From sequence record PQ657784: a stretch of 64,000 nucleotides of DNA; one strand, written 5' to 3'. The position numbers and the translations under genes were made by a program. How positions within the stretch are numbered: position 1 is the first letter of the stretch; each line of letters opens with the position of its first letter. Positions 4,086 to 39,017 of the stretch are shown here, piece after piece. Under the pieces are notes generated by a model. It did not search any database. It had not been told where the DNA came from and saw only the letters and a list, made by a program, of their open reading frames with translations. Source of the DNA: Escherichia phage EPIMRB01.

Positions 4086-4256
4086 TCCACATAATACGCC
4101 ATACAGAGGCTCATTAGAACTTTTAAATTTTATGCGCTTATATTTTATAGTTCCTTCTGCTTTAGCTTTATCATGAGACTCTTTAAAGCGTCTCATCATT
4201 TCCTCTTTAGAGGAACGAATTTTATTATAATCTATTTCAGAAGTCTGGGTGTTCAT
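4083..4256 (-). CDS. Small hypothetical protein (57 aa), below the ORF-track cutoff
   Basis: ATG at 4256 to TAG at 4083, read by eye: MNTQTSEIDYNKIRSS...LYGVLCG; fills the gap between a-gt and the next ORF. Confidence 0.3.
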   Translation of the reverse strand: MNTQTSEIDYNKIRSSKEEMMRRFKESHDKAKAEGTIKYKRIKFKSSNEPLYGVLCG

Positions 4257-4259
4257 CTT

Positions 4260-4466
4260 TCATAACTGCCACCATTTTTTGACTTGATAAGAATCAACCC
4301 ACACTTTCATATTAGGGTCTGCTCTTACAATAGGAGGATTAACTTCTTTAATTGAACTATCATGGTATTCTTTTTCAGAAATTTTCACACAAAGATGACC
4401 ATTCAAAGATTCAGTAAATCCTGCATTAATTTTAAGACGCTTGAATTTTACGTGTGTAAGCATCAA
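4260..4466 (-). CDS. Hypothetical protein, 68 aa
   Basis: ORF in compact minus-strand gene series. Confidence 0.4.
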   Translation of the reverse strand: MMLTHVKFKRLKINAGFTESLNGHLCVKISEKEYHDSSIKEVNPPIVRADPNMKVWVDSYQVKKWWQL

Positions 4467-4749
4467 TCATATCCTCAATTTGCGATCTAGTAGTCTTCCA
4501 AAGAATACTGATGAGTTCATCGTTATATGGCTGTTTTAGAATATCCCGACTTTTCTTGATAGCATATTCGTATTGAGCAAAATTATTGTTTTCAGCTGCA
4601 ATCTGAGCGTGCTTATAAAGACGATTCAGTTCGCGTTTGTTTTTAGACAATAACTTATTTGCTTTTCTTTCTGCTTCAAGACGGTTCTTTTCTTCAATAG
4701 AAGAAATAAGCTTTTCCACTTCATCATTAATTTCGGGTTTATCAGTCAT
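4432..4749 (-). CDS. Hypothetical protein, 105 aa, basic and helical
   Basis: ORF; Lys/Glu-rich helical sequence. Confidence 0.5.
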   Translation of the reverse strand: MTDKPEINDEVEKLISSIEEKNRLEAERKANKLLSKNKRELNRLYKHAQIAAENNNFAQYEYAIKKSRDILKQPYNDELISILWKTTRSQIEDMIDAYTRKIQAS

Positions 4750-30051: not shown

Positions 30052-30525
30052 TTATTTGAACGATTTAACGTACTGAATAGAACCTTTACTATTTACAAAG
30101 GCAATTTTACCATTTTTATTATACATTGTAGCAGTACGTTGATAGCCATAAGTTTGTTTACCAGATTGATAACCAACTAATGCAAAATTATCTTCACCCA
30201 TTTTATTCTGTTTAGCGCGAATGCGTTCATGACCATGTGCCATAAGAACCTTAGCATCACCAGTTGCAATGGATCGACGAGTTTTTTCATCTTCAACTGT
30301 ATTAACAAAGTCGTCAAATGAATCAAATTTAGCATGAGATTTATTATACAATTTTCCATCTACTGCATAATTATATCCCTGTACATCCATCTCAACTTCT
30401 GTACCATCATCCAATACAGCAGTAATTTTCTGTCCTTTTTTAAATTTCAAAAGATCAGTAAAAGATTCAGCAATAATTTGAGAATTAATAGCTGCTTCAG
30501 TGATAAATTCTTGATATGTTTTCAT
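30052..30525 (-). CDS. Internal (capsid-packaged) protein with capsid-targeting sequence, 157 aa (IPII/IPIII position)
   Basis: N-terminus MKTYQEFITEAAINSQIIAE matches the T4 internal-protein targeting leader with protease-type cleavage after I-x-E. Confidence 0.7.
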   Translation of the reverse strand: MKTYQEFITEAAINSQIIAESFTDLLKFKKGQKITAVLDDGTEVEMDVQGYNYAVDGKLYNKSHAKFDSFDDFVNTVEDEKTRRSIATGDAKVLMAHGHERIRAKQNKMGEDNFALVGYQSGKQTYGYQRTATMYNKNGKIAFVNSKGSIQYVKSFK

Positions 30526-34047: not shown

Positions 34048-34578
34048 TTATATCATGCTATTTAAGAGATGTAAACTATTTTTAATTTTACAAATTCGTT
34101 CAGCTTCTTCAACAGCGGCGGCGATAATGCTTTTAGCTATAGGAGTACTAATACTAGTAGCTTTTACACTTAACACGATTTCTTTATCTTTACCAGGCCA
34201 ACCCCACGATTTTTCACCGTGAGTGCCTTTAATTACAGCAGACACCTCAAGTGAGCATCCATTATCATATGTTTTTACATTGACAACCCAAGGTTCACTT
34301 TTCTCAATCGGTTTCTCAATCGGTTTATCCCAGTAAATATTAAGAATACGTGGGACATCAAATTTGGCAGGACAAATCTTAACCGTAAGACCTTCGCTTT
34401 CTAGCCAATTAATAAGAGGGCGTTCATACAGGCGACGATGTGGGCTTGGGATTCGACAAGCCTTATGTCCGTTGCTTGCGGCTTCACTAAGCTGTTCTAA
34501 TACCTGCTTTTGCATTATTGATAAGATACCATCAAAAGATTTTTCGGAAGTTTCATTCAGTTCGGTATAAAGAGACAT
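34048..34578 (-). CDS. Hypothetical protein, 176 aa
   Basis: ORF. Confidence 0.5.
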   Translation of the reverse strand: MSLYTELNETSEKSFDGILSIMQKQVLEQLSEAASNGHKACRIPSPHRRLYERPLINWLESEGLTVKICPAKFDVPRILNIYWDKPIEKPIEKSEPWVVNVKTYDNGCSLEVSAVIKGTHGEKSWGWPGKDKEIVLSVKATSISTPIAKSIIAAAVEEAERICKIKNSLHLLNSMI

Positions 34579-34633: not shown

Positions 34634-34897
34634 TTATTTCATATTATTGAAATATTCTTCTGCGATTTCGTCGTTATCGTGGTAAACTTTAGAAGACAGT
34701 TTAACATAACCTTCAGCGGTGAACATGTTAATCACAACCTTTACAGTATACCACTGACCATCTTCATTACCCATTACTGCATAGGTTTCAAACATCGGAT
34801 GGTCAGGACCGATAACTTTAATATCATTCACTGTACGACCGAAATCTTCTGAAACGCATTTCATAAAGAAGTTGAACAGTTCGCCGTAATTATCCAT
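34634..34897 (-). CDS. Hypothetical protein, about 87 aa (start at the Met after promoter and GGAGAAT RBS)
   Basis: Track ORF 34634..34951 trimmed to MDNYGELF. Confidence 0.45.
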   Translation of the reverse strand: MDNYGELFNFFMKCVSEDFGRTVNDIKVIGPDHPMFETYAVMGNEDGQWYTVKVVINMFTAEGYVKLSSKVYHDNDEIAEEYFNNMK

Positions 34898-34942
34898 TTT
34901 ATTCTCCAAGTTGTTTTTCTGTATCAGTAGTTGATAGTTGTA

Positions 34943-34995
34943 TAGTACCATGGAAGAACGGGGATGTAAACCGTTTTGTGAAAAAATTTTTAAAA
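34943..34995 (-). promoter_or_regulatory. T4-type early promoter with conserved leader
   Basis: Reverse complement reads AAAAATTTTTTCACAAAACGGTTTAC-N17-GGTACTATACAACTATCAACTAC. Confidence 0.55.
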
Positions 34996-35104
34996 AGTTT
35001 TAGGGAATTCTAGGGCAGGGATGGGCAATTAAAGGATAGGATAATATATTATAAAGGGTATAAACTAAATGATGCCTAGAGAGGTCCAGAAAGGCCTAGA
35101 TATC

Positions 35105-35132
35105 AAAAAGCCCCAACCTTTCGGTCGGGGCT
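35105..35132 (-). terminator. Intrinsic terminator (AGCCCC-loop-GGGGCU plus U5); copy 1 of an exact 28-nt repeat
   Basis: Plus strand aaaaagccccaacctttcggtcggggct just after the stop of ORF 35139..35612. Confidence 0.65.
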
Positions 35133-35138
35133 AAAATG

Positions 35139-35612
35139 TTATTTGATTTGTTTAGCAGACCAAATGCGGTCTTTGATGATTTTTTGGATGTCTTCAACAT
35201 ACTCAAGAGAGTGAGCATGTGGGTTATCTTTGAAACTATAAGCACGAGCTAGCTTTTGGCCTTCGGTTTTGATTACTAAAAGCTCTTTAAGGATAGCTTC
35301 ATATTTAGCGATAATTCCTTTAACAATATTTTTTTCTTGTGCAGCTTTAGGATCTGCTTTAGGAGCAGGTTTACCCGAAGCCTTTGCAAAAGCAGCGCCA
35401 GTAGCAACTAAACTTTTCCAGGCCATACTAACTGCATTTCCCGTAAATCCTTCTGCTTTCATGTCGCGAGCAAACTGGAATCGTGATTCGTCAGAAGCAT
35501 CTTTATAGGAATATTTACCCGCTGCAATGGCTGCTTTTGCGACAGCTTGAATTTCGGTGCTAGATGCTTCATTTAACACCGCTTCATTTAAAAATTGAGC
35601 ATATGATTTCAT
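35139..35612 (-). CDS. Internal-protein-like protein with capsid-targeting-type leader, 157 aa
   Basis: N-terminus MKSYAQFLNEAVLNE resembles the internal-protein leader MK(T/S)YxEF(I/L)xE with an L-x-E cleavage context; Ala/Lys-rich body. Confidence 0.6.
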   Translation of the reverse strand: MKSYAQFLNEAVLNEASSTEIQAVAKAAIAAGKYSYKDASDESRFQFARDMKAEGFTGNAVSMAWKSLVATGAAFAKASGKPAPKADPKAAQEKNIVKGIIAKYEAILKELLVIKTEGQKLARAYSFKDNPHAHSLEYVEDIQKIIKDRIWSAKQIK

Positions 35613-35652
35613 CTTATTTCCTGTTTTAATTCGTGGATTTAATATACTACTA

Positions 35653-35660
35653 TATTTATA
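35653..35660 (-). promoter_or_regulatory. Late promoter TATAAATA upstream of the internal-protein-like gene
   Basis: Reverse complement of 35653-35660 is TATAAATA. Confidence 0.5.
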
Positions 35661-35662
35661 CT

Positions 35663-35690
35663 AAAAAGCCCCAACCTTTCGGTCGGGGCT
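35663..35690 (-). terminator. Intrinsic terminator; copy 2 of the exact 28-nt repeat
   Basis: Identical sequence to 35105-35132. Confidence 0.6.
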
Positions 35691-35693
35691 AAG

Positions 35694-35996: not shown

Positions 35997-36347
35997 TTAG
36001 TATTCTTTTAAAGCATCAACCTGTTCACGACGTTTACGCCATAAATCAATTACTTCATACGCAGATTCAGCATTTCGAATTGGACGGCATTTATATAAAG
36101 ACTTATGATTTTGATATTGTGTAGATAACGGAATTTTATCTAAAAGGTCTTTACGTTCAAAATATTCGTAACCATCTAAACCAAATGAACGATTTTTGAG
36201 AAATTGCCAATGACCGTATTCGTTTTCGACATAAACATAATCTGCATGCTGATAAAGTAAATTAATTACACGTTCAGAAATAACAGTGTCATTGTGATTA
36301 AAATAGAATGTTAAATCATGAACTACTAAATAAACATTACCTTTCAT
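35997..36347 (-). CDS. Hypothetical protein, 116 aa, immediately downstream of the tRNA cluster
   Basis: ORF; no motif recognised. Confidence 0.45.
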   Translation of the reverse strand: MKGNVYLVVHDLTFYFNHNDTVISERVINLLYQHADYVYVENEYGHWQFLKNRSFGLDGYEYFERKDLLDKIPLSTQYQNHKSLYKCRPIRNAESAYEVIDLWRKRREQVDALKEY

Positions 36348-36363: not shown

Positions 36364-36439
36364 TGGTCGAGGCAGTAGGGATCGAACCTACGACCTAGGA
36401 CTTAGAAGGTCCTTGCTCTTCCTTCTGAGCTATGCCTCG
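36364..36439 (-). tRNA. tRNA-Arg (anticodon UCU)
   Basis: Cloverleaf folded by eye: 7-bp acceptor, D-stem GCTC/GAGC, anticodon loop CTTCTAA, T-loop TTCGATC, encoded CCA. Confidence 0.8.
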
Positions 36440-36443
36440 GATT

Positions 36444-36518
36444 TGGCGGACGTGATAGGATTCGAACCTATAACCAATCGCTTAACAGGCGATCGCTCTG
36501 CCATTGAGCTACACATCC
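36444..36518 (-). tRNA. tRNA-Asn (anticodon GUU)
   Basis: Acceptor GGATGTG/CACGTCC, D-arm AGCTCAATGGCAGAGC, anticodon loop CTGTTAA, T-arm, CCA. Confidence 0.7.
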
Positions 36519-36522
36519 AAAT

Positions 36523-36609
36523 TGGTGGGGAGTGATGGAGTCGAACCACCCGAGTCGCAATGACAATGAATTTACAGTCCACACCGCTACCTCTACGGGA
36601 TAACTCCCC
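36523..36609 (-). tRNA. tRNA-Tyr (anticodon GUA), long variable arm; D-arm non-canonical
   Basis: Perfect acceptor GGGGAGT/ACTCCCC, anticodon loop CTGTAAA, T-arm GGTGG-TTCGACT-CCATC, CCA; D-stem pairs only weakly. Confidence 0.6.
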
Positions 36610-36618
36610 AAATTAATT

Positions 36619-36693
36619 TGGTGGCCCTGGGTGGAATTGAACCACCATCTGGCGATTATGAGTCGCTTGCTTGAACCTTCCAGCTACAGGGCC
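36619..36693 (-). tRNA. tRNA with CAU anticodon (tRNA-Ile2-like; Met not excluded)
   Basis: Acceptor GGCCCTG/CAGGGCC, anticodon loop CTCATAA, T-arm, CCA. Confidence 0.7.
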
Positions 36694-36694
36694 T

Positions 36695-36770
36695 TGGTGC
36701 TGATTGACGGAATCGAACCGCCGACCTTCTCATTACAAGTGAGTTGCTCTTCCTTCTGAGCTAAATCAGC
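36695..36770 (-). tRNA. tRNA-Thr (anticodon UGU)
   Basis: Acceptor GCTGATT/AATCAGC, D-arm AGCTCAGAAGG, anticodon loop CTTGTAA, T-arm, CCA. Confidence 0.8.
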
Positions 36771-36775
36771 AAAGC

Positions 36776-36865
36776 TGGCGGAGGCGATAGGATTTGAACC
36801 TATGAGTCGCCGGAGCGACTGCCGGTTTTCAAGACCGGTGCATTAAACCACTCTGCCACGCCTCC
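36776..36865 (-). tRNA. tRNA-Ser (anticodon UGA), long variable arm
   Basis: Acceptor GGAGGCG/CGCCTCC, anticodon loop CTTGAAA, long extra arm, T-arm GGTTCAAATCC. Confidence 0.8.
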
Positions 36866-36867
36866 AG

Positions 36868-36941
36868 TCTCCATACAAGGATTTGAACCTTGGACCTCCT
36901 GATCCCAAATCAGGCGCTCTACCAAACTGAGCTACACGGAG
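36868..36941 (-). tRNA. tRNA-Pro (anticodon UGG), CCA not encoded
   Basis: D-arm AGCTCAGTTTGGTAGAGC, anticodon loop TTTGGGA, T-arm GGTTCAAATCC; acceptor includes G-U pairs. Confidence 0.7.
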
Positions 36942-36951
36942 TAAATTAAAT

Positions 36952-37025
<74 letters not shown>

Positions 37026-37030
37026 AAATT

Positions 37031-37119
37031 TGGTGCGAGAAGTGGGACTCGAACCCACAAGGAAATCATTCCGCAGCATTTTAAGTGCTGTGCCTTTACC
37101 AATTTGACCATTCTCGCGC
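37031..37119 (-). tRNA. tRNA-Leu (anticodon UAA), long variable arm
   Basis: Acceptor GCGCGAG/CTCGCAC, anticodon loop CTTAAAA, long extra arm, T-arm GGTTCGAGTCC, CCA. Confidence 0.8.
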
Positions 37120-37191
37120 TGGGAATAAAGGACTTGAACCTTTGCATCCTGGAATCAAAATCCAGTGCCTTACCAACTTGGCTAATTCCCA
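37120..37191 (-). tRNA. tRNA-Gln (anticodon UUG), CCA not encoded
   Basis: Acceptor TGGGAAT/ATTCCCA, anticodon loop TTTTGAT, T-arm GGTTCAAGTCC. Confidence 0.75.
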
Positions 37192-37277: not shown

Positions 37278-37793
37278 TTAAAGCAAATCAACCATTTTAA
37301 CAGTCGGCAAAACAATTTCTTCTTCAATATAAGTAAATTCTACATGTTCAACTACACGCAAGAAATCATAGTCATAGTATTCAGAAGCATGACCAAGAAT
37401 ATCAATGAGGCCTTCAGATATCTTATTACCATTCACAAAGAATAAATCAAATACACGTTCTTCATCTTCTTCGGATTTATTACCAAGGTCAACTTCTATG
37501 TCAAAGAGCTTTTTAATGAATTCTGGATAAAGTTGGTCTGAGAACAGTCCTTCAACCAAATATTCATATATAAAAAGCTCTTGCTCGCTGAACAAACCAT
37601 TACCACAATAACGTTCAACTTTGGTACTAGAATGACGACTCTTAAACTTCTTCAAGAGATATTTAAATTGTTGGAGCTCATTCTCTTCTACGCCAAACAG
37701 TGTTTTGGTTTTATAGTTGTCACCATCATTTTCACAGGTAGTGACATCAATTACGTAACCCTTAGGAATTGTGCTGCCTAAACGAATATACAT
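37278..37793 (-). CDS. Hypothetical acidic protein, 171 aa
   Basis: ORF upstream of the tRNA cluster. Confidence 0.5.
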   Translation of the reverse strand: MYIRLGSTIPKGYVIDVTTCENDGDNYKTKTLFGVEENELQQFKYLLKKFKSRHSSTKVERYCGNGLFSEQELFIYEYLVEGLFSDQLYPEFIKKLFDIEVDLGNKSEEDEERVFDLFFVNGNKISEGLIDILGHASEYYDYDFLRVVEHVEFTYIEEEIVLPTVKMVDLL

Positions 37794-38680: not shown

Positions 38681-38730
38681 AATAGTATCACAACTAAAAC
38701 CCTATGTAAACAACTTTGTGAAATATTTAT
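38681..38730 (-). promoter_or_regulatory. T4-type early promoter with conserved leader variant
   Basis: Reverse complement reads AATAAATATTTCACAAAGTTGTTTAC-N17-GATACTATTACCCTATCAACTAC. Confidence 0.55.
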
Positions 38731-39017
38731 TACAAAAGATTTTTAGCAATAATCTTGAGATGTGCCGCAGAAATGTGTTTAGCTTTAAACAACGCAGTTT
38801 CTTCAGCAGGAGAGATAATGATTGTAGCACCATCCTTTTTAGCAGACCACCCATCACCTAGGTAAACAGTACCTTTGATTTCTTCGCCATCAACCAAACT
38901 AATCATTGGTTTACCTTCTCGTCCTTTATTTGCTTTAATAACTTCAGAAGTAAGAGTAGCTTCAGTAATAGTAGAAACCGGGGTAGTTGTAGAAGTAAAT
39001 TCTTTGAAAGTTTTCAT
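38730..39017 (-). CDS. Internal protein with capsid-targeting leader, 95 aa (IPI position and size)
   Basis: N-terminus MKTFKEFTSTTTPVSTITE with I-T-E cleavage context; located between 57B and the tRNA cluster. Confidence 0.65.
   Translation of the reverse strand: MKTFKEFTSTTTPVSTITEATLTSEVIKANKGREGKPMISLVDGEEIKGTVYLGDGWSAKKDGATIIISPAEETALFKAKHISAAHLKIIAKNLL

Follow-up and report, generated by a model that had tools for sequence, protein, structure and literature searches.

On the minus strand of a 64,000-nucleotide stretch of DNA from Escherichia phage EPIMRB01 (sequence record PQ657784; the whole stretch is hereafter called the window), an open reading frame (ORF) at 35139..35612 begins with ATG and encodes a protein of 157 amino acids whose N-terminus is MKSYAQFLNEAVLNE, as an earlier note on this DNA had stated. 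I report here an analysis of this gene, which probably defines a new family of T-even internal proteins (Ips), the proteins that are taken up into the phage head and enter the host together with the DNA. Judged by its DNA matches, the window is a Tequatrovirus (T4-like) genome, since the closest of these is Escherichia phage AUBRB02, at 99.9%, and an 801-nt query around the gene matches 675 phage records. The surroundings of the gene are collinear with the T4 tRNA region. In minus-strand order, ipI comes first, followed by homologs of trna.4, trna.3 and trna.2, ten tRNAs, a 116-amino-acid ORF, a sequence matching T4 rnaC and the 157-amino-acid gene; downstream of the latter lie homologs of e.8, of an ORF replacing e.7, of e.6 and of e.5. 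The rnaC match just upstream of the gene corresponds to the 3' part and trailer of T4 rnaC, and with the ten tRNAs at 36364..37191 it bears out the tRNA-adjacent location given in the earlier note. The gene thus sits in the rnaC-e.8 gap, outside the ip loci at 57B-tRNA.4 and vs.8/denV-e; two Ip loci are recognised in recent literature (PMC12373910).

A self-contained cassette bounded by two terminators

The ORF is part of a self-contained unit of 558 bp that consists, in order, of a terminator, the octamer TATAAATA, a ribosome-binding site, the ORF and a near-identical terminator (Table 1). The upstream terminator, which the earlier note did not mention, has 10 pairs in its stem, a GAAA loop and a U run, and aligns with the single terminator downstream of T4 rnaC. 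The terminator that follows the stop codon likewise has a 10-bp GC-rich stem, a GAAA loop and a U run. TATAAATA starts 6 nt past the upstream stem, at the end of the U tract of that terminator. A 35-nt direct repeat bounds the cassette, its two copies being 94% identical and spaced 558 nt from each other, and the RB32 record says of the same ORF (RB32ORF133c) that it is 'flanked by 34 bp imperfect direct repeat'.

The T4 junction, aligned with the window and with RB32, is made of the rnaC trailer, a single terminator copy and the sequence leading to the e.8 early promoter. In the window, the left and right flanks are as in T4, and between them lie terminator copy 1, TATAAATA, the ribosome-binding site, the ORF and terminator copy 2. 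On the evidence of this alignment, the cassette arose by duplication of the terminator of the tRNA/rnaC operon. Recombination between the two terminator copies could add or remove the cassette, which would account for the empty site of T2, T4, T6 and PST, all of which have one terminator copy and no gene.

The arrangement is conserved in homologous loci, in keeping with the earlier proposal that the gene has its own late promoter and terminator. In six of eight such loci (G50, RB32, phiD1, GRNsp7, RB27 and KP1) TATAAATA comes directly after the terminator, the other two (JK36 and 04086) having AATAAATA in its place. In Klebsiella phage KP1 the terminator differs in sequence and the flanks are unrelated, yet the arrangement is the same; four genera share the order terminator, promoter motif, ribosome-binding site, ORF, terminator.

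Table 1. Features of the 157-amino-acid gene, its cassette and the adjoining region (window coordinates).
Feature	Position	Strand	Basis or remark
Coding sequence of the 157-amino-acid precursor (17.2 kDa, pI 9.5), stop codon included	35139..35612	-	ORF list, PHROG 2280, tblastn, dN/dS
Codons 1-10, MKSYAQFLNE: leader resembling a capsid-targeting sequence, first L-x-E site (predicted cut after E10)	35583..35612	-	Ip leader comparison, position-weight matrix
Codons 11-15, AVLNE: second L-x-E site (predicted cut after E15)	35568..35582	-	read in sequence
Residues 16-75, N-terminal three-helix domain with AGKYSYKD..SDESRFQF..D.KAEGF motif	35388..35567	-	model pLDDT 86-91
Residues 76-87, disordered Lys/Pro/Ala-rich linker (AKASGKPAPKAD), running into PKAAQEK	35352..35387	-	low pLDDT
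Residues 88-157, C-terminal helical hairpin	35142..35351	-	model helices 88-124 and 132-155; protein alignment
T4-type late promoter motif TATAAATA	35653..35660	-	read in sequence; 40 nt before ATG
Ribosome-binding site AGGAAA, 4 nt before ATG	35617..35622	-	read in sequence; conserved in homologous loci
Downstream intrinsic terminator, right copy of the duplicated element	35109..35132	-	dG -20.6 kcal/mol; z -5.6 against shuffles
Upstream intrinsic terminator, left copy, ending the tRNA/rnaC operon	35667..35690	-	stem, loop, dG -20.3 kcal/mol
Right copy of the 35-nt direct repeat bounding the 558-bp cassette	35100..35134	.	repeat search
Left copy of the 35-nt direct repeat	35658..35692	.	repeat search; single copy and no gene in T4
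ipI	39017..38730	-	first in minus-strand gene order, before the trna.4, trna.3 and trna.2 homologs
Homologs of trna.4, trna.3, trna.2		-	between ipI and the tRNA cluster
Ten tRNAs	36364..37191	-	after the trna.2 homolog in minus-strand order

The leader and its predicted cleavage sites

Mutational work on T4 IPIII has assigned targeting mainly to residues 4 and 7, and processing to residues 8 and 10 (PMC9026906). The earlier note had likened the N-terminus of the 157-amino-acid protein to the targeting leader and had made that likeness depend on alignment to known targeting sequences; in the alignment, Y4, F7, L8 and E10, the key positions of the IPIII capsid-targeting sequence (CTS), are all kept. 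The annotated Ips of T4, T2, T6, RB32, RB14 and RB69 all start with MK[TM][YF]xxF, with E or N at position 6 in nearly all of them, and most of their leaders continue to (I/L)-x-E↓A (the arrow marks cleavage).

The leader was sought among the 491 ATG-initiated ORFs of at least 50 amino acids in the window. A regular expression for it matches three of them, ipI, a gene resembling Ip4 (30052..30525) and the 157-amino-acid gene. A position-weight matrix built from 11 annotated Ip leaders, the 157-amino-acid family being left out, ranks the ORF third of the 491, behind only ipI and the Ip4-like gene, with a score of 4.2 bits compared with a mean of -17.1 (standard deviation 5.9) and with -0.6 for the next ORF. 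The scores of ipI (22.9) and of the Ip4-like gene (29.6) are those of genes that are effectively in the training set.

The gp21 cleavage motif L-N-E↓A is present twice, so that the predicted sites in the window protein are FLNE↓A and VLNE↓A. The second site stems from a 15-nt tandem duplication, TTAAATGAAGC occurring at 35591..35581 and again at 35576..35566 on the minus strand, and the AVLNE segment is missing from the RB27, JK36 and 04086 homologs, which have a single site. The leaders of the homologs measure 9-15 residues, and each closes in hydrophobic-x-E ahead of a conserved mature start, ASS(S/T)(D/E)(V/I). Insertions and deletions among homologs are confined to the leader, and every homolog has an equivalent L-x-E-type site, as seen in the series MKSYAQFLNEAVLNE↓ASS, MKTYNEFLNESVLTE↓ASA, MKTYAQFLMTE↓ASA, MKSYAEFLTE↓QSS, MLEYSEFLKELFCE↓ASI and MKFKEFLAE↓ASS. 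The AlphaFold2 model is disordered at the leader, with a predicted local distance difference test score (pLDDT) below 50 for residues 5-15. The N-terminal peptide expected upon cleavage is ASSTEIQAVAK for a cut after E15 and AVLNEASSTEIQAVAK for a cut after E10, while an intact N-terminus would give SYTQFLNEAVLNEASSTEIQAVAK.

A basic, all-helical body

With 18.5% alanine, 13.4% lysine and a pI of 9.5, the 157-amino-acid protein is close in composition to IPII and IPIII, and its AlphaFold2 model (mean pLDDT 75) is all-helical, in agreement with the Ala/Lys-rich helical body described in the earlier note. An N-terminal three-helix domain, confident over residues 18-75, is joined to a C-terminal helical hairpin by the linker KPAPKADPKAAQEK, which is built from a short tandem repeat with a 12-nt unit (direct repeat at 35344-35367). 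The hairpin is nearly invariant across Tequatrovirus, Mosigvirus and Dhakavirus, the N-terminal domain being the more variable half of the protein. In the relatives from Klebsiella and Yersinia phages, leader and N-terminal domain are retained and the C-terminus is a different one.

Sequence-profile searches of Pfam, NCBIfam and the PDB returned nothing significant for the protein, and comparison of its model with PDB folds gave no match. Foldseek against BFVD found the protein's own family only, and the 11 matches obtained with phmmer among 1.84 billion representative proteins are family members, fragments or low-complexity sequences. The mature body showed no significant similarity to IPI-III, Ip4, Ip5, Ip6, Ip7, Ip9 or the RB69 internal head proteins. 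In the comparison with T-even internal-protein families that the earlier note had suggested, the leader agrees with theirs and the body is unrelated to all eight families compared.

Distribution, selection and annotation

A tblastn search with the protein retrieved 511 phage records, 467 of them nearly full length, from four genera of the Tevenvirinae (Tequatrovirus, Mosigvirus, Dhakavirus and Jiaodavirus), the site being the same throughout. The order tRNA/rnaC, gene, e.8 is kept in Tequatrovirus, Dhakavirus (04086) and Jiaodavirus (KP1), and in Mosigvirus JK36 the gene comes directly after the tRNA/rnaC unit. Most sequenced Tequatrovirus genomes carry the gene; protein searches, phmmer included, did not find the family outside T4-like phages. 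When the empty-site junction of T4 was used as the query, most relatives turned out to have an insert, which measures about 558 nt in some and about 690 nt in others, and the site is found with no gene, with the 157-amino-acid gene, with a gene for a 187-amino-acid protein, or with both. The possibility that this phage alone has the gene inserted was hence rejected: occupancy by the gene is the commoner state of the site, from which T4 departs.

The Nei-Gojobori pairwise ratio of nonsynonymous to synonymous substitutions (dN/dS) among eight homologs is 0.04-0.17, with dS up to about 2. By this measure, the ORF is a real gene under strong purifying selection. It matches PHROG 2280 over residues 1-157 (E=4e-60), a family of 'unknown function'.

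The description of the gene as previously uncatalogued probably holds, as far as the records and papers covered go. About 510 records call it 'hypothetical protein' or similar, against one stray 'Internal head protein' label. The stray label belongs to UniRef A0AAU8BA37, the homolog from Klebsiella phage KPKp; the other named members examined in three UniRef clusters are labelled 'hypothetical', 'uncharacterized' or 'Phage protein'. The RB32 annotation from the Karam laboratory names Ip4, Ip5, Ip7 and Ip9 and leaves RB32ORF133c hypothetical. A literature search on the RB32, RB14 and RB69 ORF names found no paper, and the paper on arabinosyl-hydroxymethylcytosine (arabinosyl-hmC) in RB69 contains no virion proteomics. 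That the gene was never among the classic internal proteins is explained by its absence from T2, T4 and T6.

Neighbouring genes

The Ip4-like gene at 30052..30525 (minus strand) also encodes 157 amino acids (MKTYQEFITE↓AAINSQ...) and matches PHROG 3155, 'internal virion protein'; its N-terminal 40-45 residues are identical to Ip4 of T2 and RB32. Identification of the ORF studied here with Ip4 was accordingly rejected, the two being different proteins. The Ip4-like gene lies in the position of T4 ipIII, downstream of gene e, so that the Ip set of this phage differs from that of T4, and ahead of it lies a promoter of the early type (GTTTAC, spacer, TAGTAT) but no exact TATAAATA.

Several features of the tRNA region also depart from T4. 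The ten genes of the tRNA cluster (36364..37191, minus strand) include tRNA-Asn and tRNA-Tyr, both outside the eight tRNAs annotated in the T4 record; a tRNA with a CAU anticodon is called Met in the window, its T4 counterpart being annotated tRNA-Ile, and the segB homing endonuclease is absent from inside the cluster. Directly downstream of tRNA-Arg is the 116-amino-acid ORF (35997..36347, minus strand). ORFs of the same size follow tRNA-Arg in T2 (where it is noted as similar to RB69ORF150c), G50 and GRNsp7, and T4 has none there. Directly upstream of the cluster is a 171-amino-acid ORF (37278..37793, minus strand), with ORFs of this size in the same position in RB32 (ORF135c), RB69 (ORF151c) and fD1 (g142) and none in T4. 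On the other side of the cassette, e.8 is listed as a 105-amino-acid ORF (34634..34951, minus strand), whose start is probably the internal Met18 (MDNYGELF...), giving 87 amino acids as in T4 e.8; an early-type promoter precedes it at about 34970..34942. A 176-amino-acid ORF (34048..34578, minus strand) occupies the position of T4 e.7, where RB32 has an ORF of similar size noted as replacing e.7.

A candidate internal protein at a proposed third ip locus

I consider it likely that the gene represents a new T-even Ip family, loaded into the head and injected with the DNA, and its position suggests that the rnaC-e.8 gap is probably a third ip locus, one that is empty in T2, T4 and T6. Late in infection, the phage transcription machinery would start at TATAAATA and produce a single-gene mRNA of about 530 nt ending at the downstream terminator; the promoter motif points to expression at the time of prohead assembly. 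MKSYAQFLNE, acting as a CTS, would take the 17-kDa precursor into the prohead scaffolding core, where the gp21 prohead protease would cut after Glu10 and/or Glu15 and leave a basic (pI 9.6) helical protein of 142-147 residues among the packaged DNA. The mature protein would exit the head with the DNA and act ahead of any phage gene expression. By analogy alone, its likeliest job would be to block a first-line host defence directed at modified phage DNA, with a type IV modification-dependent restriction enzyme as the most probable target. Of the GmrSD type IV restriction enzymes, Ip1, Ip2 and Ip3 each inhibit a different one, ip4-10 showed no reproducible target among GmrSD variants (Silas et al. 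2025, PMC12373910), and Bas37_0260, which bears a CTS, inhibits McrBC (bioRxiv 10.1101/2025.11.20.689424); the literature searched contained no assay of restriction relief by the 157-amino-acid protein itself. Since every characterised leader-bearing protein has such a role, anti-restriction is the default expectation.

These proposals are of unequal strength. The leader, the cleavage motifs, the cassette with its late-promoter and terminator signals, and the dispensability of the gene can be read from the sequences compared. Packaging and processing of the protein are quite likely, whereas an anti-restriction or anti-defence function, suggested by analogy, has somewhat less than an even chance. 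Besides the leader, the genetic organisation is as expected of an ip gene: the gene is dispensable, given that T2, T4, T6 and PST do without it, and it forms a repeat-bounded cassette as other ip genes do. A virion list also includes a close homolog. The fD1 (= phiD1) protein g140 (67942..68415, 157 amino acids), which is 98% identical to the window protein, was listed as phage-particle-associated in an LC-MS/MS (liquid chromatography coupled to tandem mass spectrometry) study of purified virions, as were the annotated fD1 Ips g129 and g146, the neighbours g138 and g139 being unlisted (PMC8309999 Table S3). This listing of a close homolog bears on the packaging proposed in the earlier note, although the preparation has to be read with caution.

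Several observations weigh against this interpretation. The fD1 preparation was purified by ultracentrifugation only, and 113 of 277 phage proteins (137 at a looser threshold) and 672 host proteins were flagged in it (PMC8309999). The list is permissive, since it also contains g142 and the adjacent HNH homing endonuclease g141 (PMC8309999), and because the preparation was dirty the detection of g140 provides modest support only. In the leader, S3, A5 and Q6 deviate from the commonest form, MKTYQEF. TATAAATA is not enriched in the window (12 occurrences on both strands compared with about 15.7 expected from base composition), so that the argument for a working late promoter turns on positional conservation. 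Moreover, the promoters of ipI and the Ip4-like gene are of the early type, and neither gene has an exact TATAAATA, so that a late-only promoter is an unusual arrangement for an ip gene in this phage. With regard to function, no similarity to characterised inhibitors was seen in the sequence and fold searches run, and action as a DNA mimic is impossible because the protein is basic. The breadth and conservation of the family exceed what would be expected of a narrowly specific arms-race inhibitor, the C-terminal half being almost invariant in three genera. Finally, targeting, cleavage and ejection of this protein are inferred.

Some of these points would be accommodated if the protein were packaged without having a specific host target, as a DNA-associated head component (charge neutralisation, genome organisation) or an accessory part of the scaffolding core. 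The mature pI of 9.6 and the Lys/Pro/Ala-rich tandem-repeat linker KPAPKADPKAAQEK suit such a role, lysine residues of the T4 internal proteins are in contact with the phosphates of the DNA inside packaged heads (review PMC3012670), and seven Ips (ip4-10) have no reproducible target among GmrSD variants (PMC12373910). The dN/dS of 0.04-0.17, the near-invariance of the C-terminal hairpin across genera and the presence of the gene in about 510 records also fit. However, the gene is dispensable, T2, T4, T6 and PST having normal heads without it, and all CTS-bearing proteins of known function are restriction inhibitors; I regard a purely structural role as unlikely, bearing in mind that it and an effector role are not mutually exclusive.

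Less probable still, to the point of being doubtful, is that the product is a late cytoplasmic protein that never enters the head, its leader being a relic of recombination with ip genes and its detection in virions a contamination. The fD1 preparation, in which 41% of phage proteins and 672 host proteins were flagged, would allow this, as would the three differences among the first seven residues from the commonest leader and a matrix score that, at 4.2 bits, falls far short of the 22.9 of ipI and the 29.6 of the Ip4-like gene, both effectively training members. On the other hand, the four functionally mapped CTS positions are kept, and the leader and cleavage context persist under purifying selection in four genera with variation in leader length only; in addition, the unrelated 187-amino-acid gene able to fill the same site has the same leader, and late-only expression fits the timing of prohead assembly. 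That the ORF is a product of chance, or what is left of a decaying gene flanked by two terminators, as might be imagined from the lack of a Pfam, NCBIfam or PDB match, from the truncated or frameshifted copies in some phages and from the split RB69 copy of the neighbouring 187-amino-acid family, is already refuted by dN/dS values of 0.04-0.17 with dS up to about 2, full-length copies in 467 records, LC-MS/MS peptides in fD1 and a confident model over residues 18-75.

To return to an injected internal protein, the two halves of the molecule suggest a more detailed and more speculative scheme. The N-terminal three-helix domain evolves faster and is fused to a different C-terminus in the Klebsiella and Yersinia phages. 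The protein might therefore be a modular injected effector, encoded at a third, unrecognised ip locus of the Tevenvirinae, in which the C-terminal hairpin, with the basic linker, would be the module for delivery or for riding on the DNA, and the N-terminal domain the specificity module, directed against a host defence beyond the known GmrSD and McrBC targets. I put this scheme forward tentatively, the chances being that it is wrong in at least part. If it were true, the gene would have escaped sixty years of T-even genetics because T2, T4 and T6 lack it.

An injected internal protein is at work before any gene of the phage is expressed, and the four whose targets are known all inactivate restriction enzymes directed at modified phage DNA; for this reason such proteins contribute to the host range of T4-like phages, a group in wide use for phage therapy and biocontrol. 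A third site would extend the ip locus map from two to three. The absence of the gene from the model phages T2, T4 and T6 makes a clean functional test possible, and the natural leader variant with its duplicated cleavage site offers a second option for the engineering of protein delivery in T4 heads. While the existence of the family will not surprise a specialist, the candidate is concrete, open to testing and widely distributed.

Comparison with known systems

The 157-amino-acid protein resembles T4 IPI-III in several respects. They share a leader of the MKT(Y/F)xEF(I/L)xE type followed by an (L/I)-x-E↓A site, and they are small and basic, with a pI of 9.5 compared with 8.9-9.5 for IPI-III. 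Their genes are non-essential, vary among relatives and form single-gene units bounded by repeated regulatory DNA, and a near-identical homolog of the 157-amino-acid protein stands in a virion list beside annotated Ips. By contrast, its mature body is unrelated in sequence to IPI-III, and its model is all-helical with two domains, unlike IPI*, which has two beta sheets flanked by helices. The gene further differs from those of IPI-III in lying at a third site (rnaC to e.8) and in having a late-only promoter motif, and its leader differs in S3, A5, Q6 and the duplicated cleavage site.

Ip4 to Ip10 of other T-even phages were reportedly described by Repoila et al. in 1994. Like these proteins, as annotated by the Karam and Krisch laboratories in T2, T6, RB14, RB32 and PST, the 157-amino-acid protein is encoded by a CTS cassette gene that is found by its leader and swapped between close relatives, and according to the RB32 record Ip7/Ip9 and RB32ORF133c alike have direct repeats around them. 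It has no similarity to those compared (Ip4, Ip5, Ip6, Ip7 and Ip9), and its gene differs from theirs in being much more widespread, in four genera, and in having been left unnamed by the annotators of the Ips.

The closest parallel in position is the 187-amino-acid gene (RB14ncORF136c, G50_00133, RB69ORF148c-149c), which constitutes the insert of about 690 nt. It uses the same rnaC-e.8 site, has terminators of its own, encodes a basic helical body and falls in PHROG 2280, and its leader, MKTYAEFLTE↓AAKLPS, is of the same kind. It is found in 165 phage records, always annotated hypothetical, either alone or in tandem with the 157-amino-acid gene (as in G50, 4139..4702 of the G50 locus piece); the RB69 reference copy is split by a frameshift, and the window lacks the gene. 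Between the two proteins, pairwise BLAST is significant at the leader only, and hhalign gives 22% probability for the rest. Despite the PHROG grouping, common descent of the two bodies is therefore unproven.

Bas37_0260 offers a functional parallel by description. It too is an Ip recognised by its leader, with a body unlike IPI-III, and its target, McrBC, is outside the GmrSD family; it differs from the 157-amino-acid protein, encoded at rnaC-e.8, in belonging to the ipI locus and in having a demonstrated function. As to the cassette, PeSL terminator-promoter repeats are an established route of cassette shuffling in T4-type phages and have been linked to earlier observations on the IP locus (Comeau 2014, PMC4122927). 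As in PeSL cassettes (Arbiol 2010, PMC2839356; PMC4122927), a stem-loop terminator and a promoter bound a small accessory gene, and the repeats provide a substrate for recombination. Whereas PeSLs combine a stem-loop with an early promoter, the cassette described here has a late promoter motif after the terminator, and the repeated unit is the rnaC terminator.

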